From Candidatus Tayloriibacteriota bacterium (GTDB lineage: Bacteria; Patescibacteriota; Minisyncoccia; Phycocordibacterales; PALSA-1337), in the NCBI GenBank assembly GCA_903857825.1, contig CAIOGI010000010.1, positions 46,542 to 110,541 on the forward strand: a DNA stretch of 64,000 bases. Reading direction: 5' to 3'. The notes beneath the pieces are model-generated. The model did not search any database. It had not been told where the DNA came from and worked only from the letters and a program-made list of their open reading frames with translations. The position numbers and the translations under genes are program-made. Positions 833 to 52,328 of the stretch are shown one piece after another; within the stretch, counting starts at the first letter, position 1; every line of letters begins with the position of its first letter.

Positions 833-2242
833 TTACTTTTCCTCCTCCACTATCTCTATCCCCAATTCTTTCAATTGCTTATCCATTACCTTCCCTGGTG
901 CATTCATCATTGGATCTCTTCCTTCTCCGTTCTTTGGAAATGCTATTACTTCTCGAATATTCGGTTCTACTTCTAGGAAAGTCATAAGTCTATCAAATCC
1001 CCAAGCTATACCTCCGTGTGGTGGTGTGCCTGAACCTAGTGCATTTAACATGTGACCGAAGTTTCTTTCAATTCTCTCATCTTCATAACCCATGATTTTA
1101 AATACAGCCTTAAGAGCTTCTGGATTATGATTTCGTATACTTCCTCCACCGATTTCAGAACCATTGAGAACAATATCGTACTGAGTTGTAAAAATGTTCT
1201 CAATGTTCTTTTGATTCATCAAATCATCCATGAATTCTGGAGTAGGTGAAGAGAAAGGATTGTGTGTGAATGTCCAGCCTTTTGTATCAATATCCTTTTC
1301 AAAGAAAGGCCAGTCGATAACCCAAAGGAAAGCCAAAAGATCAGGATCATTCTTATCAGTACGAATATCAGGTTTATCAACACCATACTTTTCCATTACT
1401 TCTTTATAAGTCAATACTGGGAATGGAACTTGTTGAATCTTCTTGTTTGGATATAGAGTGGTAACAAGGTCTATAAGAATCTTTTCGTTTATCGCCATTA
1501 CATCTTTTCTTTCAACAAAACTCATTTCCATGTCCATTTGTGTGAACTCTGGCTGTCTATCACCGCGACTGTCCTCATCACGCATACATCTAGCAAATTG
1601 AAAATACTTTTCAAAGCCAGATGACATAAGAAGTTGTTTGTATTGCTGAGGACTCTGAGGAAGTGAATAGAATGAACCTCTCTCTAGACGAGAAGGAACA
1701 ATATAGTCTCTTGAACCTTCTGGTGTTGTAGCAGAAAGAAGTGGAGTTTCAATCTCGGTGAAGCCTTCTTTTGCTAAAGCATTTCTAACATGAAGCATGA
1801 CCTTGTGGCGATTTATAATATTCTTCTGAAGTCTAGGTCTTCTGAGATCCTGGTATCGATATTTTAGTCTCACCTCTTCATTAATTTCTTTTCCATCACC
1901 GCGAATATCAATAGGTGGAGTAGTGGCCTCATTTAGCACCTTGATTTCTAAAATCTCAAGCTCTATTTCCCCATTCTGCTTATCCTTCTGTACATTCTTT
2001 GGTGGTCGAGGATTTACTTTACCCTTAACGCAAACAACCCATTCTGGTCTTAGAGTAAAACCTACTTCATGAGCTGCTGTGGCATTTGGTAATATAACTC
2101 CTTGCACCTTTCCTGTGACATCGCGAAAATCAAGGAAAATAAGCTTTCCCTGATCTCGGCGAATATCAACCCAGCCTTTTATAGTTACTTCTTGTCCAAC
2201 TTTTGCACTTAAATCTTTAATATATGTTCTTTCCATGAACAT
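833..2242 (-). CDS. aspS: aspartate--tRNA ligase, compact form without the bacterial GAD insertion
   Basis: class II aaRS motifs: QSPQQYKQLLM, CMRDEDSRGDRQPEFTQMDMEMSF (AspRS-type motif 2), GGGSIRNHNPE; N-terminal OB anticodon-binding region; 469 aa. Confidence 0.85.
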   Translation of the reverse strand: MFMERTYIKDLSAKVGQEVTIKGWVDIRRDQGKLIFLDFRDVTGKVQGVILPNATAAHEVGFTLRPEWVVCVKGKVNPRPPKNVQKDKQNGEIELEILEIKVLNEATTPPIDIRGDGKEINEEVRLKYRYQDLRRPRLQKNIINRHKVMLHVRNALAKEGFTEIETPLLSATTPEGSRDYIVPSRLERGSFYSLPQSPQQYKQLLMSSGFEKYFQFARCMRDEDSRGDRQPEFTQMDMEMSFVERKDVMAINEKILIDLVTTLYPNKKIQQVPFPVLTYKEVMEKYGVDKPDIRTDKNDPDLLAFLWVIDWPFFEKDIDTKGWTFTHNPFSSPTPEFMDDLMNQKNIENIFTTQYDIVLNGSEIGGGSIRNHNPEALKAVFKIMGYEDERIERNFGHMLNALGSGTPPHGGIAWGFDRLMTFLEVEPNIREVIAFPKNGEGRDPMMNAPGKVMDKQLKELGIEIVEEEK

Positions 2243-2588: not shown

Positions 2589-3539
2589 TTAGTTTACGCC
2601 AATATTTTTCTTTACTGTCAAAAGCTTGGCATCAGCACGTGTCTTAGCTCGAGATGCTCCGTCTGCAAGAATGGCTTTAATTTCCTCAACATTTTTACTT
2701 AACTCTTCTCTCTTTTCTCTCAATGGTTTTATAAATGCGTCAAGGTCTTCTATAAGAGTTTCTTTCAATATTTTATACTTGCCCTTATTTTGATCATAAA
2801 TAGCCTTCAATTCCTCGTCTGAGCGTAGTAATTTATGAATGTTATATACATTTACCGGTGTCTCGCCACTTGAATCTGTGACAATGCTCATAACAGCTTT
2901 TGTTATTTCCTCTCGAGTAGCAAAAAGTGGAATTGTATTCTTATAACTCTTACTCATTTTCTGTCCATCTGTGCCGGGTACCACCGCAACCTCTTTCATT
3001 ATGAAAGGCTCAGGAAGTTTGAAAGTTTCTCCGAAGGTATTGTTGAACTTTTGAGCTGTATCGCGTGTATATTCTATGTGTTGTTTTTGATCCTGACCAA
3101 CTGGAACTGTGTCCACATCGTATAAGAGAATATCAGCAGCCATAAGCATAGGATAATTAAATGTACCAACACTAATCTCCTTATCCTTCGCTTCTGCGTC
3201 CTTGAAGGCATGCGCACGCATAAGGTAAGGCATGGTGGTGATAGTATCAAAGATCCAAGCTAGCTCAGTGTGTGCAGATACGTCTGACTGTTTAAAAATG
3301 GTTGAGGTTTTTGGATCAAGTCCAATGGCAAGATAATCCAAAATAAAATCTAAGGTATATTCGCGCATCTCCTTGGCGTTTTGAACAGTATTTAGAGCGT
3401 GATAATCAGCAATCATGAAGAAACAATCATACTTACCACTATTTTGTAATTCAACCATCTGTTTCATCGCACCAAAATAGTTTCCAATATGCAATTTACC
3501 TGATGGCTTTAATCCTGATAGTAATGTTTTTTTTGACAT
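2589..3539 (-). CDS. trpS: tryptophan--tRNA ligase
   Basis: class I HIGH-type motif GKLHIGN near N-terminus, GQDQKQH, KMSKS; 316 aa typical for TrpRS. Confidence 0.9.
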   Translation of the reverse strand: MSKKTLLSGLKPSGKLHIGNYFGAMKQMVELQNSGKYDCFFMIADYHALNTVQNAKEMREYTLDFILDYLAIGLDPKTSTIFKQSDVSAHTELAWIFDTITTMPYLMRAHAFKDAEAKDKEISVGTFNYPMLMAADILLYDVDTVPVGQDQKQHIEYTRDTAQKFNNTFGETFKLPEPFIMKEVAVVPGTDGQKMSKSYKNTIPLFATREEITKAVMSIVTDSSGETPVNVYNIHKLLRSDEELKAIYDQNKGKYKILKETLIEDLDAFIKPLREKREELSKNVEEIKAILADGASRAKTRADAKLLTVKKNIGVN

Positions 3540-3571: not shown

Positions 3572-4453
3572 CTATAGCCCCTCCTTCTTCAATTCCTCAA
3601 TTAGTTTCTGGGCGGTTTTCGATACTTTCTTTGGCATTTCAACCTTTGTAACTATTAGCAAATCACCTCTCCGACCTCTTTCGTCCGGAACACCCTTTTG
3701 TCTAACTCTCAATATTTCATTATGCGTTGTTCCTGTTGGTATCTTCAATTCAATTTTTCCATCAAGTGTTTCAACATCCAATGTAGCTCCTAGTAGTGCC
3801 GTTGTAAGTTTGAGCTGTAATTCCATTACTATGTTGTAACCCTCTTTTCTAAATACAGAATGTTCCTCCACCCAGATACGCACAATGAGATCACCTTTTC
3901 CTCCAGGACCATCCTCGCCTTTTCCTTGAACTCTTAACCCCTGACCGTTCTCGATACCAGCAGGAATAGTAACGACTATTTTTTCTTTATTAATATTTAA
4001 TTCTTTCTCAAGTCCAAAAACTGATTCCTTGAAAGAGAGTTGCACATCTACAGTAATATTTGCTCCTCTACGAGGTCGTCTACCTCCTCCAAAAAAATCT
4101 CCGAATAGATCCCCAAGATCGAATTCAAAGCTTTGGCCTCCTCCTTGTGCTTGCTGTCTCGCAAATCCAGAAAAGTCGAAGCCACCGAATCCTTGACCTC
4201 CATTAAATCCATTGAAGCCACCTTGCCCACCACCGAAACCATTTGGTTCAGCTGGACCAAATGTATCGTACTGCTGTCGCTTCTGATCATCAGAAAGTGT
4301 TGTGTAAGCTTCGTTTATCTCTTTGAATTTCGCATCGTTTCCATTATTTTTGTCAGGATGATGTTCATGAGCAAGCTTTCTAAAAGCTTTCTTTATATCG
4401 TCTTTTGAAGCGCTCTTTTCAACGCCGAGTATTTTGTAATAGTCTTTTGACAT
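3572..4453 (-). CDS. dnaJ: J-domain chaperone of the DnaJ/CbpA class (J-domain, Gly/Phe-rich linker, C-terminal substrate-binding domains; no CxxCxGxG zinc finger)
   Basis: YYKILGV...HPDKN J-domain with HPD, long GGFGG/GF repeat linker, no cysteine repeats; 293 aa. Confidence 0.85.
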
Positions 4454-4486: not shown

Positions 4487-5233
4487 CTATTTCAACCCAT
4501 CAACATATTTTTCTGCAGACTTTAACACAGCTTCCAACATAAAATTCTCATAATCATCTTTACCTCCTCCAGTCTGAGCCTTTTCAAGTGATGTAACGTA
4601 AATCCTGCGATCTTCAGGATGAATGACTACTGGAGGATAATCGTTCTGCATTAGTATAAGGTTAAGCAATAGTCTAGCTGTTCTTCCATTGCCATCTGTA
4701 AACGGGTGTATGGAAACCAGGCGATAATGCGCTTCAATTGCTGTCAGCACAGGATGCTCAGTTGTTTTGCTAATCCATTTTACAAATTCTGTCATAAGAT
4801 CTGGTACTGAAGCTGGGTTTGGCATGATAGATGTAGAACCGGTAATGCGTACAGGTATTGTACGCAATCTTCCAGAGTTTACGTCGTCATTCTTTTGCAA
4901 AAGAATTCTATGTATATCGAGAATAACAGCCAGGGTAATATCACTTAGCTTTTTATTATTTTCAGCAAACTTTTTTATATATTCTACTGCTTCAGAATGA
5001 TTCTTTGCTTCTATAAGCTCTCTAAGTTGTTTACCTTCTATGCTTATATCCTTTTCTACTACTAAGGCTGTTTCTTGGCGAGATAGAGTGTTTCCTTCGA
5101 GAGCATTAGAAGTATAAGTAAGCTCAATACGATACCATTCATCTAGGTTCTTTACGAGTGCTGGGTCAATAATTCCATGACTAGCAATTTTTGCTTTAAT
5201 TTCATCGATTTTACTAAGTAATTCTTGTTTCAT
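4487..5233 (-). CDS. Fic family protein (canonical AMPylation motif)
   Basis: HPFTDGNGRTARLL matches Fic core HxFx(D/E)GNGRxxR; 248 aa. Confidence 0.85.
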   Translation of the reverse strand: MKQELLSKIDEIKAKIASHGIIDPALVKNLDEWYRIELTYTSNALEGNTLSRQETALVVEKDISIEGKQLRELIEAKNHSEAVEYIKKFAENNKKLSDITLAVILDIHRILLQKNDDVNSGRLRTIPVRITGSTSIMPNPASVPDLMTEFVKWISKTTEHPVLTAIEAHYRLVSIHPFTDGNGRTARLLLNLILMQNDYPPVVIHPEDRRIYVTSLEKAQTGGGKDDYENFMLEAVLKSAEKYVDGLK

Positions 5234-5323
5234 TTGACATTATCATAACAGATAAATGAAATTTAAATAACCCTTGACCTCATCGAGTATTTATGCTTAA
5301 ATAGAGTAAACAAGAACGGGGGG

Positions 5324-5572
5324 GTGATATGTTGTGATTACCCACTGTTCTTCACACAAACACACAACAAGAATTGGATTACCATGATAGCGTTTGGACT
5401 TTTAAACATCGGCTTCTCGATTATGGCTTTGGCCATATGTTTTGCGAATTTAGTGCGTAAATCGCAAGAACAGTTTGGGCCAATGCAAGTCGCATGTTTT
5501 GGTTTAACCTGCACAACTTTGTTACTGGTTTTGTGCAAGGGATGCTCAGTTGCGATGGATATTTGGCACTGA
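5324..5572 (+). CDS. GC-rich small Cys-rich hydrophobic ORF (62 aa from the internal ATG at 5384, 82 aa from the GTG at 5324); could instead be a structured ncRNA
   Basis: ORF track; two predicted hydrophobic helices, 8 Cys; about 47% GC in a roughly 30% GC context; followed immediately by a strong intrinsic terminator; no convincing RBS. Confidence 0.3.
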   Translation: MICCDYPLFFTQTHNKNWITMIAFGLLNIGFSIMALAICFANLVRKSQEQFGPMQVACFGLTCTTLLLVLCKGCSVAMDIWH

Positions 5573-5573
5573 C

Positions 5574-5617
5574 CGAAGTCGGCCCCCACTTACGTGGGAC
5601 AAGCCGGCTTCGTTTTT
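5574..5617 (+). terminator. intrinsic terminator (outer 8-9 bp stem cgaagtcg/ggcttcg enclosing inner stem cccac/gtggg, then T6)
   Basis: hairpin and T-run read directly from sequence. Confidence 0.6.
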
Positions 5618-5628
5618 TATATTTAGTA

Positions 5629-5883
5629 TTATGCATATTTTGCATAATACTCGTTTGTAATGTGCATTATTTGCACTTTCCTTTTGAACTTGTAGGGATT
5701 ACTTACAAGTTGAGTATGTTACAAATTGGAACTACCTTATACAAGTATTCCGGAATTTCCGGATAACTGCCGAACCGTTGCATTATTTGCAACAGTTGCC
5801 TGGGCCTCAACTTGTTCCAATATGGAAACAGTAGTAAAGGATTTCTTTACCACTCATCCAGTTGTTGCATTATTTGCAACAAC
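5629..5883. promoter_or_regulatory. array of four inverted repeats with core TGCA-N5-TGCA: ATGCA-tattt-TGCAT (5630-5644), GTGCA-ttatt-TGCAC (5661-5675), GTTGCA-ttatt-TGCAAC (5777-5793), GTTGTTGCA-ttatt-TGCAACAAC (5861-5883); operator-like
   Basis: read directly; the last site has perfect 9-bp arms; sites lie 110-370 bp upstream of the PemK/MazF-like gene; a TTGACA at 5926-5931 lies between the array and the gene. Confidence 0.5.
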
Positions 5884-5995
5884 TGAATCTTGCTAAAATA
5901 TATTCTATATGTTTGAATGCTGTTTTTTGACAAAATCTTTAGAACTTCTTAAGAACTTTTTGTTACATTATGCAAATTATTAGCATAATTTAAAT

Positions 5996-6385
5996 ATGAT
6001 GATTAAAAATTTTGATAAATGGAATAAAAACAAGAAGATTATTAATAACTCAAAAACATATCCACTGTATAATCAAAGAGAAATCTGGTGGTGTTCGCTC
6101 GGTGTAAATATTGGCTACGAACATGACGGGGACAAAGTAGAATATCAGAGGCCTGTACTTATATTGAAAGGTTTAAGTAAATATACGTGTTTTATAGTTC
6201 CTTTAACATCATCTTTACATAGGCATAAAATGAGAATCCCCTTAGGAATAATTAATGACAAAAGTGCTAGTGCTGTGATTTCTCAATTTCGAACTATTGA
6301 TACAAAGAGATTAACCGAGAAAATTTGCTATCTTGACGAAACTGTATTTGAATTAACGAGAAAAGCTACCAAAGACCTGCTCTGA
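5996..6385 (+). CDS. PemK/MazF-family toxin (endoribonuclease fold) with no adjacent protein antitoxin of 60 aa or more
   Basis: REIWWCSLGVNIGYEHDG...RPVLILKG...CFIVPLTS and C-terminal RTIDTKRL...ETVFELTRKATKDLL resemble PemK/Kid/MazF conserved blocks (RPxLVV, PRTID); 129 aa. Confidence 0.75.
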   Translation: MMIKNFDKWNKNKKIINNSKTYPLYNQREIWWCSLGVNIGYEHDGDKVEYQRPVLILKGLSKYTCFIVPLTSSLHRHKMRIPLGIINDKSASAVISQFRTIDTKRLTEKICYLDETVFELTRKATKDLL

Positions 6386-6525
6386 TAGCTTTTCCTCACT
6401 AATCCCCTCATTTAAGAGGTAAGCCCGAAGGCACTGTTTTTCTTTTCTCCCCTCTTTCGAGAGGCGTTTGCTCGCGTAGAGCATTTTATGACATTATATT
6501 ATCATATTTAACTCTAAACGCAACC

Positions 6526-8439
6526 CTACTTCTTTTCTTTGAATTCAGCATCCTTCACATCTCCCTCTGGTCCTTTTTGCTCGCCTGCTCCGCCTGTTGG
6601 ACCACCTGCTGGTGGTGTTTGCTTTGCTGCTTCAGCCTGAGCTTTTGATAGTATTTCACCTATCTTTGAAAGCTCACTTGAAAGTGCTTCTGTAGACTTC
6701 TTTAGTAAAGCTGGATCTGTTCCTTCCTTTGAAGTTTTTACATCAGCGATTTTGTCTTCAATGGACTTTCTCAAATCTGCTGGGACCTTGTCACCTGCGT
6801 CTTTCAATGATTTCTCTGAAGTATAGATGAGCTGCTCTGCAATATTCTTTGCTTCAATCATTTCTTTTTTCTTTGCATCTTCTACTGCATGCATTTCAGC
6901 TTCTTTTGTCATCTTTTCAACTTCTTCTTTTGAAAGACCTGAGCTTGCTGTGATCTTTATGCTATTTGTCTTTCCTGTTGTCTTATCCTTTGCAGTAACA
7001 GAAAGGATACCATTAGCATCTAGATCAAATGTAACCTCGACTTGTGGCATACCGCGAGGTGCAGGGGCAATACCATCAAGTATAAATCTACCTAGAGACT
7101 TATTATCACCTGACAATGGTCTTTCACCCTGAGTAATATGAATTTCTACGGATGTTTGATTGTCAGCTGCTGTAGAGAAGATTTGAGACTTCTGGGTAGG
7201 GATAGTAGTGTTCTTCTCAATGAGTTTTGTAGCAACTCCACCCATTGTTTCAATTCCTAGAGAAAGAGGAGTAACATCTAGTAGAAGTACGCCTTTTACG
7301 TCTCCTGCCAAGATACCTCCTTGAATAGCAGCACCCACCGCAACCACCTCGTCAGGATTTACACCAAGGTGCAACTCCTTTCCGAAGAAATCCTTCACAG
7401 CCTTTTGCATAGCCGGCATACGTGTCTGTCCTCCGACAAGAACAATCTCATTTATATCTGCAATCTTGAACGGAGAAGCTTCCATAGCTCTCTTGGTGAT
7501 TTCCATTGCACGATCAATGAACTCTTTTGTAAGTTCCTCAAGCTTTGCTCGAGTCATGGTAATAAGTAAGTGCTTTGGACCATCTGCGCCTGAAGTAAGG
7601 AATGGAATATTCACTTCTGTTTGAACTGCTGTTGAAAGCTCTATCTTTGCCTTTTCTGCTGCTTCATCTAGTCTCTGAAGTGCTAGTGCATCCTTTCTAA
7701 CATCAATTCCCTCTTGCTTCTTGAATTCATCTGCAAGCCAATTGATAATCTTCTGATCAATATCCTTTCCTCCAAGGTGTGCATCTCCGTCTGTAGACTT
7801 TACTTCCACTACATCATCTCCAACCTCTAGTACTGATATATCGAATGTTCCTCCACCGAAGTCAAAGACTACTATTTTCTCGTCCTTTTTCTTGTCGAAT
7901 CCATAAGCCAATGCTGCTGCCGTTGGCTCATTTATAATTCTTTTTACATCTAGTCCCGCTATCTTTCCTGCATCTTTTGTTGCTTGTCTTTGTGCATCGT
8001 TGAAGTATGCGGGTACAGTAATAACTGCCTCTGTGACTGGTTCTCCAAGACGTGACTCCGCATCAGCCTTTAGTTTTCCAATGATCATTGCTGAGATCTC
8101 CTCTGGTCTATACCATTTATCTCCCATCTTTACTTCTATTCCTCCTGATGCAGACTTTTGCATTTCGAAAGGTACAGAAGCTCTATCCTTTTGTACTGCA
8201 GGATCATCGAAGTTGTGACCGATGAATCTCTTGATCTGATAAATAGTATTCTTTGGATTTGTAACTCCTTGTCTCTTGGCTAATAGACCCACCATTCTAT
8301 CGCCTGTTTTTGATTGCGCGATAATAGACGGTGTGGTTCTAGCACCTTCTGCGTTTTCTAATATTTTAGGTGTACCAGCTTCCATCACAGCGACGGCAGA
8401 GTTGGTAGTACCTAGGTCGATTCCTATAATTTTGGACAT
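6526..8439 (-). CDS. dnaK: molecular chaperone DnaK (Hsp70)
   Basis: [22 protein letters not shown], full-length Hsp70 architecture, 637 aa. Confidence 0.97.
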
Positions 8440-8493: not shown

Positions 8494-8499
8494 ATTATA
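8494..8499 (-). promoter_or_regulatory. candidate -10 box TATAAT for dnaK (minus strand), about 55 nt upstream of the dnaK ATG; same bases form an apparent GGAGGTGA SD on the plus strand
   Basis: minus-strand reading ...gtgattcaTATAATcacctcc...; a weak -35-like tgactg lies 15-18 bp upstream. Confidence 0.35.
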
Positions 8500-8618
8500 T
8501 GAATCACTGGACATCAGTCAGTTGGGCGCTACCTGTTGTGGCGCGCTACATGGTCGGAGCCATGCTTGGGCGAGGAAACCAGTCTGGGAGTACTCGCCCT
8601 TTATATTTATACTATTAG
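8499..8618 (+). other. GC-rich (about 55% GC) island upstream of the dnaK promoter: 39-aa ORF (MNHWTSVSWALPVVARYMVGAMLGRGNQSGSTRPLYLYY) with an apparent perfect SD GGAGGTGA; alternatively a structured regulatory element
   Basis: ORF hand-translated; 7-bp inverted repeat gggcgag(8568-8574)/ctcgccc(8593-8599); direct repeat ggcgctac x2; the apparent SD is the reverse complement of the putative dnaK -10, so the ORF may be fortuitous. Confidence 0.25.
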
Positions 8619-8917
8619 ACTACAAATGCCGGAGCTCTTGTTGGTTGACTCATAAAAAATTCTAATAAAAAGTAAGGTGAAAGTATTGATTCAAATTCAG
8701 CAAAGCTGGTTTCAATAATAACTTTACTTTCTTTAATGCATGGCAAGCAAATAACATCCTCAGCTGGCACTACGAACGGAATAGCGGAAATGATCTGAGC
8801 TTGGAATTTGCCATTTACTTCAACAACGGTAAAACGAATACGAACTAAAAGCCCGTTCTTGTCCTTAACAATTCTTTCAAAGATGCTATTAAGTTGTTTA
8901 TTTTGAAGGGATAGCAT
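8615..8917 (-). CDS. hypothetical protein, last gene of the HEPN/MNT operon
   Basis: ORF track; same strand and 25 bp downstream of the MNT gene; no motif recognised. Confidence 0.4.
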   Translation of the reverse strand: MLSLQNKQLNSIFERIVKDKNGLLVRIRFTVVEVNGKFQAQIISAIPFVVPAEDVICLPCIKESKVIIETSFAEFESILSPYFLLEFFMSQPTRAPAFVV

Positions 8918-8942: not shown

Positions 8943-9257
8943 TTATTTATTATTCAAGTTTTTATAAAACAATTTTCCTTCTTCATCTATATGCTTCTTT
9001 AATTCAATATTTGAAATACTATTATAATCAAGAACATCAACTTTATATGGGAACCTTGGTGCATTATCAAGCATATTTCTAAAATCTGATGCTGTGTTTG
9101 TATTTAATATTCCTTTTAAGGCAATATCTATATCTGATGCAGGTTTATAATTTCCCATTGCTCTTGAACCAAAGATAATAAGTTCGTCAACATCTGGAAA
9201 GACTTGAACATATCTTGAAATAATTTCTAAAATATCATCATTTAATCCAAATTTCAT
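8943..9257 (-). CDS. minimal nucleotidyltransferase (MNT, HI0073-like) antitoxin-type protein
   Basis: Pol-beta-type NTase motif ...LIIFGSRAMGNYKPASDIDIAL... (GS-x9-DxD); 104 aa; start overlaps upstream HEPN gene by 4 bp. Confidence 0.8.
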   Translation of the reverse strand: MKFGLNDDILEIISRYVQVFPDVDELIIFGSRAMGNYKPASDIDIALKGILNTNTASDFRNMLDNAPRFPYKVDVLDYNSISNIELKKHIDEEGKLFYKNLNNK

Positions 9258-9652
9258 AGTGATTTCTTGAAATATACATAAAGATCAGCAAAAATCTTTG
9301 CGTACGATTCTCTAATTAGCTTCTCGGCCTTTATACTAAGTATTTCATCATAAATATGAGATAATTCGTTTCTCTTATCTAGTGCTTCTAACCACATTTC
9401 TCCATTTTCAATATAGCCTGTTTGTAAAGCTTGCTTAAGCGTATCGCGTGGAGTTTTTAATATAAATCCTTCAAATTCTAGTTTATCATTCATTGTTTTC
9501 CAGGATAATTCAAAAAGAAATTCAAATGTCTGAATTAGCGCAGCACGAAACAAGTCATCGTTTGTTGTATCTTGTTTTAGAGCTCTTAAAAATTGAGAAT
9601 ATGCTTTCTCAAAATTTGAAAATCTTTGTTTCCATCTTTTTTCATTTTTCAT
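9254..9652 (-). CDS. HEPN-domain protein of the HI0074 / nucleotidyltransferase-substrate-binding family (toxin-type partner of MNT)
   Basis: RNELSHIYD fits the HEPN Rx4-6H motif; 132 aa all-helical; ATGA 4-bp overlap with the MNT gene. Confidence 0.75.
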   Translation of the reverse strand: MKNEKRWKQRFSNFEKAYSQFLRALKQDTTNDDLFRAALIQTFEFLFELSWKTMNDKLEFEGFILKTPRDTLKQALQTGYIENGEMWLEALDKRNELSHIYDEILSIKAEKLIRESYAKIFADLYVYFKKSL

Positions 9653-10628: not shown

Positions 10629-11489
10629 TTACTTATCACTTTTCTTAACAAAATCCTTAGCGAAATTTACCAGATATGTGTATGAAGACTCTGACTCAGC
10701 TATAAATTCTTTTATCTTGTTGAATCTCAAGTCTAAATACTCATGCGCTAAGATGTTTCTAATTTTAGCAAATCTACCTAGAACTTTTGCTTTTTCAAGA
10801 TCAAATCCATTTACTTCAATTAAATTTTCTAATATCGATTTATAAGTATTTGGAATAAGCTTCTTTTCTGAAGCTAAAATAATCTTTGATATGTCGACAC
10901 TTGAATTTACAATATTTTCTACCCACCTTTCCATACTTCTTTTTACATCTCTATCTGTTTGATATTTTATTTGATCCACCTTTTTAAATTTTGAGAAATC
11001 TTTAATTTCTTGTTCTAAAAATTCCACGATCTTTATTAGTCTTTCCTTGTCTGTAAGGCTGAGTGAATTTGACCTCTCTTTGATTTTAATAAAATCATCC
11101 ATATAATCTCTATAATATTCTGCAGCTTCATTTATTACATTTGAAAATCTAGCAAAATATTTAGGGTCTTTCATTATAAGCAATTTCCCATCATTTATGA
11201 TTGAATCGGCAAGGGTTGAAGAAGCCCTATTGAGAACAACCATATCTGTTTTTATTTCAAGAATTTTCTCAATCTCAGACCAAAGCTCATCCTCGCCTTT
11301 ATATGATTTCTCTTCCTCATATTCAACGTCACTAGTCGTTGGCTTAAAATATACAGCAATATCAATATCTGACTCTCTATGCGTCATATCTTTTGCGTAA
11401 GAACCAAAGAGAAAAGCAGCTAGGACATTGTCTTGGGTCTCTAGAAATACTTTTAATTTATCTAGTTTTTCTAGGATTTCTTTGCTCAT
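10629..11489 (-). CDS. fused nucleotidyltransferase (MNT) + HEPN (DUF86/HepT-like) protein
   Basis: N-terminus LFGSYAKDMTHRESDIDIAV (NTase GS...DxD); C-terminus RNILAHEY (HEPN Rx4HxY); 286 aa. Confidence 0.75.
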   Translation of the reverse strand: MSKEILEKLDKLKVFLETQDNVLAAFLFGSYAKDMTHRESDIDIAVYFKPTTSDVEYEEEKSYKGEDELWSEIEKILEIKTDMVVLNRASSTLADSIINDGKLLIMKDPKYFARFSNVINEAAEYYRDYMDDFIKIKERSNSLSLTDKERLIKIVEFLEQEIKDFSKFKKVDQIKYQTDRDVKRSMERWVENIVNSSVDISKIILASEKKLIPNTYKSILENLIEVNGFDLEKAKVLGRFAKIRNILAHEYLDLRFNKIKEFIAESESSYTYLVNFAKDFVKKSDK

Positions 11490-11558
11490 AGTGTAATTCT
11501 ATCGTAATATCATTGTGCATAATAGCTTGACAAGTACTAAATACAGTGTATTATTTAA

Positions 11559-19231: not shown

Positions 19232-19285
19232 AAATTATTATACCACAAGGGTACTTCTATTTCACTAATTCGCTGGGTACAGCTC
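19232..19285 (-). promoter_or_regulatory. 54-bp repeated promoter / 5'-leader module, copy 1 (minus strand carries TGGTATAAT extended -10 about 12 nt before the ATG of ORF 18077-19228)
   Basis: 52/54 nt identity with 28383-28436; both copies end 3-4 nt from a minus-strand start codon. Confidence 0.5.
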
Positions 19286-19336
19286 ATGTGAAATAAGTCG
19301 TACCATCAATATTTGTTTTATGTTTGTTGGGCTGTT

Positions 19337-28382: not shown

Positions 28383-28436
28383 AAATTATTATACCACAGA
28401 GGCACTTCTATTTCACTAATTCGCTGGGTACAGCTC
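28383..28436 (-). promoter_or_regulatory. 54-bp repeated promoter / 5'-leader module, copy 2 (TGGTATAAT about 12 nt before the ATG of ORF 27111-28379)
   Basis: 52/54 identical to 19232-19285. Confidence 0.5.
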
Positions 28437-28446
28437 ACTTCTCTCT

Positions 28447-40626: not shown

Positions 40627-41670
40627 TTATTTTACCAGACTTATTATACGATTAGAAATTTCTTTTGGTGTCAAGATTTCATCTGCCAATCCTTCATCAA
40701 TTATTGCCTTAGGCATAGAATCTATCACTGTAGTCTCTGGAGTTTGAGCTATTATTATACCACCAGCTTGCTTTATTTTCCTTGCACCTAGAAGACCATC
40801 ATTACCCATACCGCTTAAAATAATACCAACAACTTTATCTTTATAAACTTTTACCACAGATTCCATTACAAAATTAATACAAGGTCTTGCACCACCATAA
40901 CTACTTTTTTTATTTAATTTTAATCTTTTACTTTCTAACATCTCAAATTCAAAATCGGTTGGAACAACATATACTCTCTTTGTAATCATATAGTCACCAT
41001 CCTTTGCTTCTACAACTTGCAAAGGACTTATCTTATTTAAACGTTCTGCAAACTTGGGTATAAAATATGCTGGCATATGCTGTACTACAATAATAGTAGA
41101 GAGAAGATCATTTGGAAGTAATCTAATAATGTCTTCAACTATAGGAGGACCTCCGGTAGATGAACCTATAACTATTACTTTTTCAGAAAGAACCAGTGAG
41201 TCTTTTTTTGTTTCTGATACTTTGTGTATACCTTTAGAGTAAACTTTTACATTTGCCAGTGAAGCAACGTGCACCTTTAATATAATCTCATCTTTAATTG
41301 AATCAATATCTATAGATATTTCCCCTGAAGGTTTAGTAATAAAGTCAATTGCTCCAGCTCTAAGGCTATCTAATACAATATCAGAACCGGCTAATGCATG
41401 AGCTGATATCATTATTATTGAGGGCTTCTTAAGATTAGAAAAAGAAAAAATCTCAGTTATTGTATCAATACCATTTCTATCTGGAAGATTATAATCCATA
41501 GTTATCACGTCTGGTGATAATTGTTTACTTTTTACCACTGCCTCATCGCTATTTTGTGCCGTACCAACAACTTCTATCTGATTATCAGATTCCAAAATCT
41601 CCCTCAAGAGTTTCCTCATGAAAAAAGAATCGTCAACAACTAAGACGCGAATTTTATTTTTTAGAGACAT
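40627..41670 (-). CDS. cheB: chemotaxis response regulator protein-glutamate methylesterase CheB
   Basis: N-terminal receiver (VLVVDDS...VITMDYNLP) plus C-terminal CheB methylesterase (VIGSSTGGPP..., ...HMP...). Confidence 0.9.
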   Translation of the reverse strand: MSLKNKIRVLVVDDSFFMRKLLREILESDNQIEVVGTAQNSDEAVVKSKQLSPDVITMDYNLPDRNGIDTITEIFSFSNLKKPSIIMISAHALAGSDIVLDSLRAGAIDFITKPSGEISIDIDSIKDEIILKVHVASLANVKVYSKGIHKVSETKKDSLVLSEKVIVIGSSTGGPPIVEDIIRLLPNDLLSTIIVVQHMPAYFIPKFAERLNKISPLQVVEAKDGDYMITKRVYVVPTDFEFEMLESKRLKLNKKSSYGGARPCINFVMESVVKVYKDKVVGIILSGMGNDGLLGARKIKQAGGIIIAQTPETTVIDSMPKAIIDEGLADEILTPKEISNRIISLVK

Positions 41671-50186: not shown

Positions 50187-52328
50187 TTATTGTGGCCTTA
50201 GATTAACACCGAATGCGTGTTTTACAGTAGTTCCACTCGTACCTATACTATCAATATCACCTATCACACCAGTATTTGAAATAAACTTTCTATATCCTGC
50301 CCTTGAAAAGTCAGAACTAGTATTTCCATGGTCATAGTCCTCGGTCCAGCCGCCAGACTGCGTAAGCGGTGCAGCAAATGTTCTAACTGTTGTTGTATAC
50401 ATACTCGGGAACATCAAAACAGTTGAACTTGCAAACGATGCATTTATCGAAGCTGCTCTATATGTTGTATTATTTGCTACATACTCTACATTTGTTGATG
50501 TCGCAATTGGATTTGCTGTGTTGAAGCATCCTCTATATGCAGATATTGTCACTGCTAATTTTGAACTTGAAGTCAGACCAAATGTATAATTTGAACCCTC
50601 TCCAGCCTGAGCAACTTTATAATACAAAGCTTGATTATTTACATTATTTTTATGACGTCCTATTAATGTCCAACCTGCTGGTATAGTAGAAAGTCGGTCA
50701 GAAGAATTTGAATGCAGAATATGAGCAAACATAATATCATTGGTTGTGACACCTGTAGGTTTATTAACAATTGCTGATGTGGCTCCAGATGAATCAAATA
50801 ACGTAGGTGTACCAACCAAAGCTGAGGCAACCGAACATGATGGGGCTACTATTTGTTCATTTGTAATTAAACAGCTTTTAGAACTTCCAGCAATAAGCGT
50901 TACTGCGCCACTAGAATTACAATCCCCAGTAAATGTTCTTGTATAATTTGCATCATTTGCCTCAGAAACTGAATATGTGCCTGAGTCCATTAATGTTGAT
51001 GCTGCTAGAGTAACTGTAGTCGTTCCATTTGCATTTCCAACTCTAAACGGAGCAAAGTCAGAAGCAACTTTTGTACCTCCATGATTTATAACAGTTTTGT
51101 TTACCGTGATGTATGCTGGTTTTTCTTCATTAATTAATGTGCAGTATTTTGTCGCTCCAGATGTTAAAACCACCGTACTTGTCGCATTACAATCACCACT
51201 AAAACTGAGTGAGTAAAGTGTGCTTGTAGCTTCAGATACCACATGAGATCCAGAATCTAGTGTTGTGGTTGCGCCTAGTGTAACCGTATTTCCATCAATC
51301 TTATATGGAGCAAAGTCTGCTGCAACTTTTGAGCCTCCATGATTTATAACAGTTTTATTTAAAACAATTGAAGAAAGTTTCTCTTCGTTTGTTATAGTGC
51401 AGTTTTTTGTATTTCCTGCTGTCAGAGTTACCAGTCCACCAGAATCACAATCACCACTAAATGATCTATCGTATAGTGAATCATTTACTTCAGAAACTGT
51501 ATGTAGTCCTGAATTAAAAGTATTAAGCGCTCCAGAAATAACAGGGTTAGAATCAATCAGTAGTGTAAAATCAGAGGCGATTTTGGAAAGTCCATGATTA
51601 ATAACAGATTTAGTGACCACAATTTTAGATGGTTTTTCTTCATTTGTTATAGTACATGAGTTTGTTGTACTTGCGACTAGATTGATGTCACCATTTGTAT
51701 CACAATCACCACTAAACGTAGTTGTGTAACTCGCATCGTTTGATTCAGAGATACTATATACACCTGGTGGGAATTCATTGGCAATACCGATATTTACTGT
51801 CGTTGTACCTACTTGATATGGAGCAAAGTCTGCTGCTACCTTAGAAGCTCCATGATTAATAACACTTTTGTTTACTGTTAACCCAGCATTTGTATTCAAA
51901 ATTGCACGCCAATTGGTTAGATATGTACTTAGCTTTAAAGTATTAGTCGCAGATATTTGATCTGCCCAGTTTATAGTCACATCAACTCTTTTTTGATTAT
52001 CATTTATTGTAGTAATATTCAATGTCCTGCTAAAAATATCACTTAGATCAGAAACTCCAGAAAAGCTCCACTGATTAGTCGATGTAGATAGTCCGTATGT
52101 ACCGTCAATTAGATTGTTAAAATTTTCATCTCTTATATTTCTAGATGCCTCTATCGCTTCTTCTGCAAGTACCGCTGCCCTTTGTTTGTTTGCAGAGTTT
52201 CTGACCTCCTTACTTACATTACCTGTAACATTTGTAGTAGCTATAATAAATACAAGAAAAATAGAGACCGATACTAGTAATTCTACCAGTGAAAAACCTT
52301 TTTTAATATGTAACAGTTCCTTTTTCAT
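50187..52328 (-). CDS. large type IV pilin-like protein (713 aa) with four tandem ~85-aa Cys-pair repeats
   Basis: KKGFSLVELLVSVSIFLVF prepilin N-terminus; repeats VINHG(A/G/L)(S/T)K(V/I)A(A/S)DF...FSGDC...C(T/L)ITNEEK at residues ~151-234, 235-320, 321-404, 405-492. Confidence 0.65.
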   Translation of the reverse strand: MKKELLHIKKGFSLVELLVSVSIFLVFIIATTNVTGNVSKEVRNSANKQRAAVLAEEAIEASRNIRDENFNNLIDGTYGLSTSTNQWSFSGVSDLSDIFSRTLNITTINDNQKRVDVTINWADQISATNTLKLSTYLTNWRAILNTNAGLTVNKSVINHGASKVAADFAPYQVGTTTVNIGIANEFPPGVYSISESNDASYTTTFSGDCDTNGDINLVASTTNSCTITNEEKPSKIVVTKSVINHGLSKIASDFTLLIDSNPVISGALNTFNSGLHTVSEVNDSLYDRSFSGDCDSGGLVTLTAGNTKNCTITNEEKLSSIVLNKTVINHGGSKVAADFAPYKIDGNTVTLGATTTLDSGSHVVSEATSTLYSLSFSGDCNATSTVVLTSGATKYCTLINEEKPAYITVNKTVINHGGTKVASDFAPFRVGNANGTTTVTLAASTLMDSGTYSVSEANDANYTRTFTGDCNSSGAVTLIAGSSKSCLITNEQIVAPSCSVASALVGTPTLFDSSGATSAIVNKPTGVTTNDIMFAHILHSNSSDRLSTIPAGWTLIGRHKNNVNNQALYYKVAQAGEGSNYTFGLTSSSKLAVTISAYRGCFNTANPIATSTNVEYVANNTTYRAASINASFASSTVLMFPSMYTTTVRTFAAPLTQSGGWTEDYDHGNTSSDFSRAGYRKFISNTGVIGDIDSIGTSGTTVKHAFGVNLRPQ
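50853..51878. repeat. four tandem ~255-bp DNA repeats inside the giant pilin gene
   Basis: recurring blocks e.g. ...ctccatgat(t/a)(t/a)ataaca(g/c)(t/a)ttt(g/a)tt... at about 51100, 51340, 51600, 51850. Confidence 0.6.

Follow-up and report, generated by a model that had tools for sequence, protein, structure and literature searches.

In a 64-kb stretch of a low-GC, Paceibacteria-like Patescibacteria genome (the window, 64,000 nt in full), an apparently orphan PemK/MazF-type toxin gene at 5996–6385 on the plus strand was found to have a conserved RNA partner, encoded convergently on the minus strand at 6355–6438 and overlapping the 3′ end of the gene. The RNA is structured, can be assigned to a strand and a promoter, and is coupled to the toxin in nearly all of about 140 related Patescibacteria loci. 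Comparison of these sequences suggests, with a probability of roughly 0.6, that the convergent RNA is an antitoxin or regulator of the MazF-type toxin and replaces the missing MazE/PemI protein. A first-pass annotation of the locus had described a solo toxin preceded by four TGCA-N5-TGCA inverted repeats and had offered an RNA antitoxin, with the repeats as its hairpin units, as one explanation. The idea is probably right in kind, but the upstream palindromes are not that RNA. What is conserved is an RNA encoded downstream of the gene and on the strand opposite to it, of which only the last hairpin (P3, 6359–6395) overlaps the region that had been described. The palindromes are a local peculiarity, and the informative signal is on the other side of the toxin gene.

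Judged by sequence and predicted fold, the window protein is a genuine PemK/MazF endoribonuclease with intact catalytic residues. The assignment made in the first-pass annotation passed the profile check: the open reading frame (ORF) matched Pfam PF02452 (PemK_toxin) with an E value of 5.2e-12 and 46.4 bits (cut-off 23.1), a profile of the family retrieved Bacillus subtilis EndoA/YdcE from the PDB (E 1.5e-6), and an AlphaFold2 (AF2) model with a predicted local distance difference test score (pLDDT) of 78.5 gave MoxT, YdcE, and Staphylococcus aureus MazF as the best Foldseek matches. The catalytic arginine (R51 in RPVL) and threonine (T70 in PLT) align with those of EndoA/YdcE and are invariant across the family. 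The ORF encodes 129 amino acids from 5996; the start consistent with the rest of the family is the second ATG at 5999, which gives 128 amino acids. An extra conserved N-terminal helix (FDxWNxxKK, residues 5–17) is present. The family is a tight one of 128-amino-acid proteins in Patescibacteria, with 297 loci confirmed by tblastn in GTDB species genomes, 80 of which were fetched for the comparisons of homologous loci described here. Neither NCBIfam nor PADLOC has a model for this subfamily.

The lack of a recognisable protein antitoxin, also claimed in the first-pass annotation, was borne out at the locus itself and at the 80 homologous loci. All-against-all clustering of ORFs of ≥35 amino acids within 900 bp of the 80 homologues gave no recurrent neighbouring protein family. 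The largest genuine clusters (ABC ATPases, LexA-like proteins, and similar) comprised 4–5 loci each, and the two largest “ORF clusters” were artefacts, in which a single conserved DNA element immediately 3′ of the toxin gene had been translated. A conventional antitoxin ORF at homologous loci would have marked the window copy as a decaying module; none was found in the 80 loci, and the absence of a protein partner is therefore a property of the family and not the result of local decay. Gene callers applied to three assemblies of the organism placed no gene between fic (4487–5233) and the toxin. It had also been stated that only 24-amino-acid mini-ORFs are present upstream; mechanical ORFs of 56–90 amino acids do exist there, though without support, and the 56- and 90-amino-acid ORFs gave no Pfam match.

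The conserved element starts within the final ∼30 nt of the toxin coding sequence and runs on for about 100 nt beyond it, and 79 loci could be aligned over it. Read on the minus strand, the family has a promoter of the form TTGAC[T/A], 16–17 nt, TATA[C/A]T, which ends 6 nt before a near-invariant ACAAGUG at the 5′ end of the RNA; at least four of six positions match in both hexamers in 63 of the 79 loci. The RNA itself is about 80 nt long and consists of three hairpins: P1, a 3-bp helix closed by a cUUCGg tetraloop; P2, a helix of 4–10 bp with a GNRA loop in 41 loci and a UUCG loop in 4; and, after a purine-rich linker (GAGAAAA, GAGAACA, or GCAAACA), P3, a hairpin of 15–20 bp followed by UUUUCUUAU. 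In the window copy the core comprises a 5′ ACAGUG, P1 (GCC-UUCG-GGC, 6423–6432; the UUCG loop is found in at least 59 of the 79 loci), P2 (CCUC-UUAAAU-GAGG, 6406–6419; variable in sequence with the pairing kept), the purine-rich linker, and the 16-bp hairpin P3, all on the minus strand. P3 encloses the stop codon of the toxin gene, TGA (6383–6385), together with the last ∼8 codons. Since U-rich tracts flank P3 on both strands, the hairpin can be regarded as a bidirectional terminator common to the two convergent genes. A tandem toxin paralogue with a longer C terminus was observed at one locus (L015, 887–1372, plus strand). Its shorter convergent RNA (∼1270–1365, minus strand) is preceded by TTGACA, N17, and TATAAT, continues with GUGGCUUCGGCC, which contains the same P1, and has a single GCAA-capped terminator hairpin.

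The structure is well supported by covariation. The three-hairpin architecture, P2 included, was recovered in 75 of 79 minimum free energy folds. By RNAalifold and pair counting, 96% of the alignment cells were paired and 14 of the 17 pairs showed compensatory double changes (143 cells); none of 500 shuffles reached the observed values, and slid controls were only 41%–59% paired. P3 taken alone had compensatory changes in 12 of 14 pairs, with 95%–99% of cells paired. The middle pair of P1 changes from C-G to G-C in 21 sequences, corresponding to ∼13 separate switches on the neighbour-joining (NJ) tree of the toxin, an approximate count because this tree is poorly resolved. The UUCG and GNRA tetraloops are readable only on the minus strand, and G-U pairs outnumber A-C pairs by 125 to 8 in favour of that strand. 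Covariation, the G-U asymmetry, and the tetraloops together therefore identify the minus strand as the RNA strand. A covariance model of the element, R1, gave a single significant match in the window, at 6355–6438 on the minus strand (69.5 bits, E 9.4e-18); on the plus strand it scored 13 bits, from the hairpin alone. The folding energy of 6352–6490 was −48.4 kcal/mol for the minus strand (z −4.2) and −35.0 kcal/mol for the plus strand (z −2.3).

These data bear on an alternative explanation, in which the downstream element is the 3′ untranslated region (UTR) of the toxin mRNA together with a bidirectional terminator and there is no separate RNA gene. P3 resembles an intrinsic terminator in both directions, and the hairpin also forms on the plus strand, as this explanation would have it. 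However, a sigma70-type promoter at a fixed distance of 6 nt from the RNA start faces the toxin gene, the UUCG and GNRA tetraloops and the 125:8 ratio of G-U to A-C pairs are confined to the minus strand, and the promoter, P1, and P2 persist at loci from which the toxin gene has been deleted. A 3′ UTR without an RNA gene is thus very unlikely. A search of Rfam 15 gave no match at E ≤1 over the element in the window and in 8 homologous loci, and no published description of a conserved RNA element of this kind was found in a literature search. The sole Rfam match, SprX, was below threshold (20.8 bits versus a gathering score of 80) and was rejected; the palindrome region upstream of the toxin had no Rfam match either.

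Linkage between toxin and RNA was observed in both directions. Starting from the toxin, R1 found the RNA in 78 of the 80 selected loci; of the two exceptions, one is cut by a contig end and the other has a different C terminus. Starting from the RNA, the 17-mer ACAAGTGCCTTCGGGCT was found at no fewer than 80 metagenome loci (at least) and in none of the viral contigs. R1 matched 61 of the 80 metagenome loci listed, 57 of them over the full length at ≥66 bits, and these matches are independent of the R1 training set except for the 17-nt seed. A convergent MazF-like match was present in 48 of the listed metagenome loci, about 42 of them full length, with its 3′ end 35–134 nt (mostly 49–66 nt) past the start of the 17-mer motif. 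At least six distinct listed loci have kept the promoter, P1, P2, and P3 with no detectable toxin ORF; in one of these six (L223) an N-terminal FDQWNE stub is fused to the C-terminal codons. About four further listed loci have only a C-terminal toxin fragment beside the RNA. Loss of the RNA beside an existing toxin is therefore rare and loss of the toxin beside an existing RNA is not, an asymmetry that an antitoxin predicts, although the comparison is between two differently ascertained sets, which tells against leaning on it. The 17-mer also matches an unrelated conserved element (…ACAAGTGCCTTCGGGCTTCGCAGGTGCAAGTCCTGCCGCACCCACC…) at three loci (L228, L250, and L251), ∼100 nt upstream of a tRNA-like sequence; this is probably another structured RNA.

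A tight linkage of this kind could also mean that the two do not form a toxin–antitoxin pair: the protein would be a ribonuclease domesticated for some cellular function in Patescibacteria, and the RNA its dedicated substrate or cofactor. The proteins are indeed very uniform in length (128 amino acids), an alignment of 55 members of the family shows 23 invariant columns, and the family is widespread in the phylum, as the 297 loci in species genomes attest. Against a settled cellular role, the genomic contexts of the 80 homologous loci vary and some genomes contain more than one copy (L010 and L046 belong to one metagenome-assembled genome). The truncated toxin genes, and the RNAs found without a toxin, are what one would expect of a module that is mobile and dispensable, and the window copy resides with Fic and MNT/HEPN genes in an islet that breaks grpE-dnaK-dnaJ. 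Domestication is accordingly regarded as improbable.

If the RNA is an antitoxin or regulator, as favoured here, a mechanism can be proposed, and we infer both the transcription of the RNA and its antitoxin function, along with each of the following steps. The module would be a compact one of two genes and about 0.5–0.6 kb, made up of a leaderless toxin mRNA and a convergent structured RNA. From the gene geometry, the toxin mRNA and the RNA would be perfectly complementary over about 35–40 nt (P3), stop codon included. The two would pair via their terminator loops and stems, and the duplex would be cleaved, for example by RNase III. The cleaved toxin mRNA would lose its stop codon and protective 3′ hairpin, so that no toxin would accumulate as long as the RNA is produced. 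Control from the 3′ end fits a leaderless mRNA, since the latter has no 5′ UTR to serve as a target. The 5′ module ACAAGUG-P1-P2 would probably be a protein-binding or stabilising platform, possibly one that is bound by the toxin. Within the antitoxin or regulator reading, antisense action is somewhat likelier than pure sequestration of the protein, and a dual mechanism is quite possible.

In addition to the unequal ascertainment mentioned above, several observations weigh against this reading. Antisense pairing does not account for the strongest conservation, that of ACAAGUG, P1, and the base of P2, and the 5′ 45 nt of the RNA gave −27.0 kcal/mol against the cognate coding sequence, versus −27.8 kcal/mol when shuffled. 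The overlap could be no more than a compact arrangement in which the two genes have one bidirectional terminator in common. A 62-amino-acid ribbon-helix-helix (RHH)-like gene is found downstream of a distant homologue on a Nitratiruptor plasmid, and hence the wider family may use protein antitoxins in reverse gene order. Finally, the window copy has no promoter at the position canonical for the family; a second P2-like hairpin and the linker AGAAAAG are found there.

The last of these points can be followed in the window itself. A possible 5′ extension of the window RNA (6439–6490, minus strand) contains hairpins at 6449–6464 (CCUCUC-GAAA-GAGGGG) and 6469–6483, so that the RNA may be about 135 nt long in this genome. 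The same long form occurs at two other loci (L009 and L029), where a −10 box is located about 50–55 nt upstream of P1. In the window, −10-like elements (TGaTAATAT, 6504–6496, and TATAAT, 6498–6493; 6493–6504 overall, minus strand) lie 25–35 nt after the dnaK stop codon (6526–6528), and were missed by the promoter consensus scan because the −35 element is weak. This weaker site, ∼55 nt upstream, could be the promoter of the window RNA, with a predicted start near 6489. Read-through from dnaK is a possible alternative source.

The invariance of ACAAGUG-P1-P2 in the absence of a pairing target points to recognition by a protein, for which the toxin is the obvious candidate. A type III-like scheme takes this further: the toxin protein would bind, and perhaps cut, the invariant single-stranded ACAAGUG/linker region and P1-P2, and the 3′ overlap would be incidental or secondary. 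Such a scheme would account for the 5′ module being the most conserved part of the RNA with no pairing target in the toxin mRNA, and for the retention of P1 in the paralogous subfamily at L015, where P2 and P3 have merged. The MazF/Kid-like fold is common to ToxN-type type III toxins. The linker class (GAGAA or GCAAA) moreover tracks toxin residues 50 (beside the catalytic R51), 80, and 107, an association that is only a lead because it involves about five changes on the tree and may mark a clade. The RNA is single copy, however, with no repeat array, and at all loci the convergent overlap places the stop codon in P3, which protein binding alone does not need. Binding of the toxin as the main mode of action is possible but on balance doubtful. 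A further synthesis, which we hold to be about as probable, combines the logic of types I and III on a classical type II toxin: the RNA would both pair with the toxin mRNA at their common terminator and bind and inhibit the protein via ACAAGUG-P1-P2. Such modules would be widespread in Patescibacteria and may also occur, in a diverged state, beside orphan PemK genes on Campylobacterota plasmids.

Two PemK homologues of 35% identity were observed on such plasmids, one of Nitratiruptor (NZ_AP023062, 1138–1620; L312) and one of Helicobacter suis (NZ_AP019776, 1123–1600; L313). Both have the same FDxWN N terminus and no annotated upstream antitoxin, and two hairpins and a minus-strand −10-like box can be seen by eye downstream of each gene. 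The model R1 gave no match on these Campylobacterota plasmid homologues.

The start of the toxin gene is consistent with a leaderless mRNA. The hexamer CATAAT (5984–5989), which the first-pass annotation had noted before ATGATG, lies 6 nt ahead of it. The TTGACA noted upstream is likewise present (5929–5934), but at 49 nt from the −10 it is too far away to act as its −35. TTGTTA (5960–5965, 18-nt spacer) fits better, which gives a promoter-like site TTGTTA, 18 nt, CATAAT at 5960–5989 on the plus strand that ends 6 nt ahead of the ATG. Among the homologues, a −10-like hexamer ending 4–10 nt before the start codon was present in 46 of 73, versus 18 of 73 in a control window, and a Shine-Dalgarno (SD)-like motif preceded the toxin start in 1 of 73 only. 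The comparison thus supports the suspected leaderless start and suggests that it is a trait of the family. At four loci (L032, L072, L078, and L080), a LexA-like gene with helix-turn-helix (HTH) and S24 peptidase motifs ends 3–45 nt before the toxin start, which suggests a lexA–toxin operon or SOS coupling in some lineages. A LexA homologue, sought because of a possible SOS operator, was not found in the 64-kb window.

The upstream palindromes, to which attention had first been drawn, are real and not random. TGCA-N5-TGCA occurs 6 times in the window versus 1.27 expected, a number reached by 0 of 100 shuffles; four of the six sites fall within 250 bp (5632–5878), and the bin 5600–6000 is the most palindrome-rich in the window. 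The arms are 11, 5, 6, and 11 bp long, not 5, 5, 6, and 9 bp as first described. S1 (AGTATTATGCA-tattt-TGCATAATACT, 5625–5651) has 11-bp arms and is terminator-like on the plus strand; S2 (GTGCA-ttatt-TGCAC, 5662–5676) has 5-bp arms; S3 (GTTGCA-ttatt-TGCAAC, 5777–5793) has 6-bp arms; and S4 (CAGTTGTTGCA-ttatt-TGCAACAACTG, 5859–5885) has 11-bp arms, or 14-bp arms with one mismatch (5856–5888). The last two do contain an exact 18-nt repeat, GTTGCATTATTTGCAAC(A), at 5777 and 5864, 87 bp apart. A fifth palindrome, S5 (ATTATGC-N9-GCATAAT, 5967–5989), lies over the toxin promoter and has the S1 half-site with a longer spacer. The region is preceded by a compound GC-rich hairpin with a T-run (5575–5619; inner hairpin 5585–5598), terminator-like on the plus strand, which closes an unsupported ORF at 5324–5572; S1 and S2 score as terminator-like hairpins directly after this strong terminator. 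Unrelated hairpins occur between the palindromes at 5687–5711, 5749–5763, and 5834–5850. A relaxed pattern gave extra matches scattered across the window, and the one exact-pattern site checked elsewhere (22233) is inside a 591-amino-acid ORF.

Either as hairpins of an RNA antitoxin or as operators for a trans-encoded antitoxin or repressor, these palindromes might still be thought to control the toxin. The cluster is statistically real, S5 sits over the toxin promoter with the half-site ATTATGCA in common with S1, and with the canonical promoter of the window RNA lost, a local substitute is conceivable. Conservation speaks against such a role: no TGCA-N5-TGCA site was found in the upstream region of any of the 80 homologues (the nearest case, L062, has a single site at −496), and the palindromes are therefore not a trait of the family, let alone the conserved partner of the toxin. 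A palindrome was present at the toxin promoters of 33 of 76 homologues versus 25 of 76 in a control, with none conserved or enriched. Nor do the palindromes behave as repeat units of an RNA antitoxin, since Tandem Repeats Finder (TRF) detected no tandem array in 5200–6600, the spacing is irregular (31, 116, and 87 bp), and folding of the region shows no strand preference (z −8.3 and −8.5 on the two strands). S1–S4 lie 110–370 bp away from the promoter, the spacer has no counterpart in the rest of the window or among the loci fetched, and the toxin family already has a conserved RNA partner. Control of the toxin by the palindromes is unlikely.

The spacer in which they lie, 760 bp between fic and the toxin (5234–5995), contains no supported gene. 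It gave no match in phage records, is not repeated elsewhere in the window, and had no blastx match among 9,134 ORFs taken from the remainder of the window and from the loci fetched from genomes, metagenomes, and plasmids, a set that left out viral contigs. The 17-mer of the palindromes was found in 103 stretches of viral contigs, nearly all of them single scattered matches, which are uninformative. From these comparisons the TGCA-N5-TGCA palindromes appear to be specific to the spacer of this genome and to lie outside the toxin/RNA module. With low confidence, we consider that they are probably operators bound by a protein and/or terminator hairpins, situated in a toxin/defence islet; in favour of protein binding, the four TGCA-N5-TGCA sites all have an AT-rich spacer, and a fifth site, with the S1 half-site, is on the toxin promoter.

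The toxin ORF is placed between fic and dnaK in a series of minus-strand genes encoding TrpRS (2589–3539), DnaJ (3572–4453), Fic (4487–5233), and DnaK (6526–8439). Gene pairs of MNT/HEPN type (Nucleotidyltransferase/NTase_sub_bind) were observed on the minus strand between dnaK and grpE, at 8943–9652 and 10631–11491, one member being a 286-amino-acid fusion. Because genes of this kind interrupt the chaperone cluster, Fic, the MazF module, and the MNT/HEPN pairs can be viewed as a toxin/defence-type islet that splits grpE-dnaK-dnaJ. The Fic protein matches the PADLOC PDC-S04/SoFic models (E 1e-32 to 1e-33) and has, by eye, an N-terminal motif of the S-x-x-x-E-G type (TSNALEGN). The window Fic lacks the DNA-binding domain, MerR-type or HTH_17, that is found at the N terminus of many of its homologues (52%–59% identity). 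Fic homologues at 80% identity are in the context rpoC-fic-dnaG with no TGCA-N5-TGCA sites, and these relatives are therefore of no help in delimiting or dating the spacer. Divergent from fic, an 82-amino-acid ORF (5324–5572, plus strand) would encode two hydrophobic helices and is followed by the strong terminator; its 62-amino-acid core had no homologue among 5.8 billion proteins. An unrelated hydrophobic ORF, also of 82 amino acids, occupies the same divergent position beside a Fic relative of 79% identity at another locus (L307, 3613–3861).

Further observations concern other parts of the window. A 39-amino-acid ORF, MNHWTSVSWALPVVARYMVGAMLGRGNQSGSTRPLYLYY, at 8499–8618 on the plus strand has a perfect Shine-Dalgarno sequence, AAGGAGGTGAT, ahead of it. 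It is divergent from dnaK and lies just upstream of that gene, where the GC content is unusually high. It has no match in Rfam; it may encode a small protein, or it may belong to a structured leader of dnaK. The promoter-like string TATACT...ACAAATGCC at 8606–8630 was dismissed because the model R1 has no match there. A dispersed direct repeat of 55 nt and 95% identity (AAATTATTATACCACAAGGGTACTTC...) occurs at 19232–19286 and 28383–28437, with a third, partial copy at 40751–40780. Four repeat copies of about 255–258 bp each (66%–86% identity) at 51045–51874 are probably a repeated domain inside a coding region. No CIRCE heat-shock operator and no tRNA or tmRNA gene was found in the window.

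At least half of the genes in the large toxin families stand alone as “solo” genes (PMC2701414), which raises the question of how cells tolerate them. In the present case, an apparently orphan MazF subfamily turns out to have a conserved and easily missed RNA partner, and Patescibacteria, for which descriptions of non-coding RNAs appear to be few, gain a structured RNA with strong covariation. If the RNA is an antitoxin, the principle of RNA antitoxins would reach the best-studied type II toxin fold, R1 could be used to re-annotate hundreds of “orphan” PemK genes in Patescibacteria, and a module of only about 0.5–0.6 kb would be directly testable in Escherichia coli.

Among known systems, type I toxin–antitoxin pairs offer the closest parallel in architecture. 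At the level of sequence architecture, the module has a cis-antisense RNA gene that overlaps the toxin and has its own promoter, as in type I; the small hydrophobic peptide (typically <60 amino acids) of that type is replaced by a 128-amino-acid protein of MazF fold. SymE and RalR are known exceptions to the rule of a small hydrophobic peptide. E. coli SymE is a protein of ∼110 amino acids tied to RNA cleavage and controlled by the cis-antisense RNA SymR, and symE, tisB, and dinQ are SOS controlled. The present module resembles SymE/SymR in having a toxin that is a protein associated with RNA cleavage, not a membrane peptide, together with a cis-antisense RNA, and the LexA-like gene directly upstream of the toxin at four homologous loci recalls the SOS control of symE. 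A review also mentions SymR (PMC6562991). In contrast to the present module, where the overlap is at the 3′ end, SymR overlaps symE at its 5′ end, Shine-Dalgarno region included, and SymE has an AbrB/MazE-like fold instead of that of MazF.

A convergent RNA gene, complementarity at the 3′ ends, and separate promoters are also features of the B. subtilis pairs txpA/RatA, bsrG/SR4, bsrE/SR5, and yonT/SR6. In bsrG/SR4 pairing starts at the terminator loop, and in bsrE/SR5 cleavage by RNase III takes place close to the stop codon (PMC6562991). The mechanism proposed above is modelled on these precedents. The toxins of those pairs are small hydrophobic membrane peptides, unlike the 128-amino-acid soluble RNase of MazF fold with a predicted leaderless mRNA described here. 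The overlap in the present module is essentially one shared terminator hairpin, the RNA has an invariant 5′ module outside the overlap, and there is no sequence similarity between the systems.

The likeness to type III systems (ToxIN, CptIN, and TenpIN) lies in the pairing of an RNA with a MazF/Kid-like endoribonuclease and in a terminator between, or shared by, the two genes. Type III antitoxins, however, are tandem direct repeats encoded upstream on the same strand and processed by the toxin, while the RNA here is single copy, downstream, and antisense, and its toxin belongs to PF02452, not to ToxN/AbiQ. With the type II systems MazEF/PemIK (EndoA-EndoAI and S. aureus MazEF), the family has in common the toxin fold and the catalytic arginine and threonine; it differs from them in having no adjacent MazE/PemI-type gene at the 80 loci and an extra conserved N-terminal helix in the toxin. 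A palindrome that might serve as an operator, S5, covers the promoter in the window; at the promoters of the homologues none is conserved or enriched. An antisense RNA at a mazF locus has a precedent in aMEF, which is reported to modulate the complete E. coli type II mazEF operon and to stimulate its synthesis and translation (PMC8749433). The present locus, by comparison, has no mazE, and its RNA is specified by a conserved, structured gene that has a promoter of its own. On the evidence of its sequence, the module would join an architecture resembling type I to a toxin of the type II kind.

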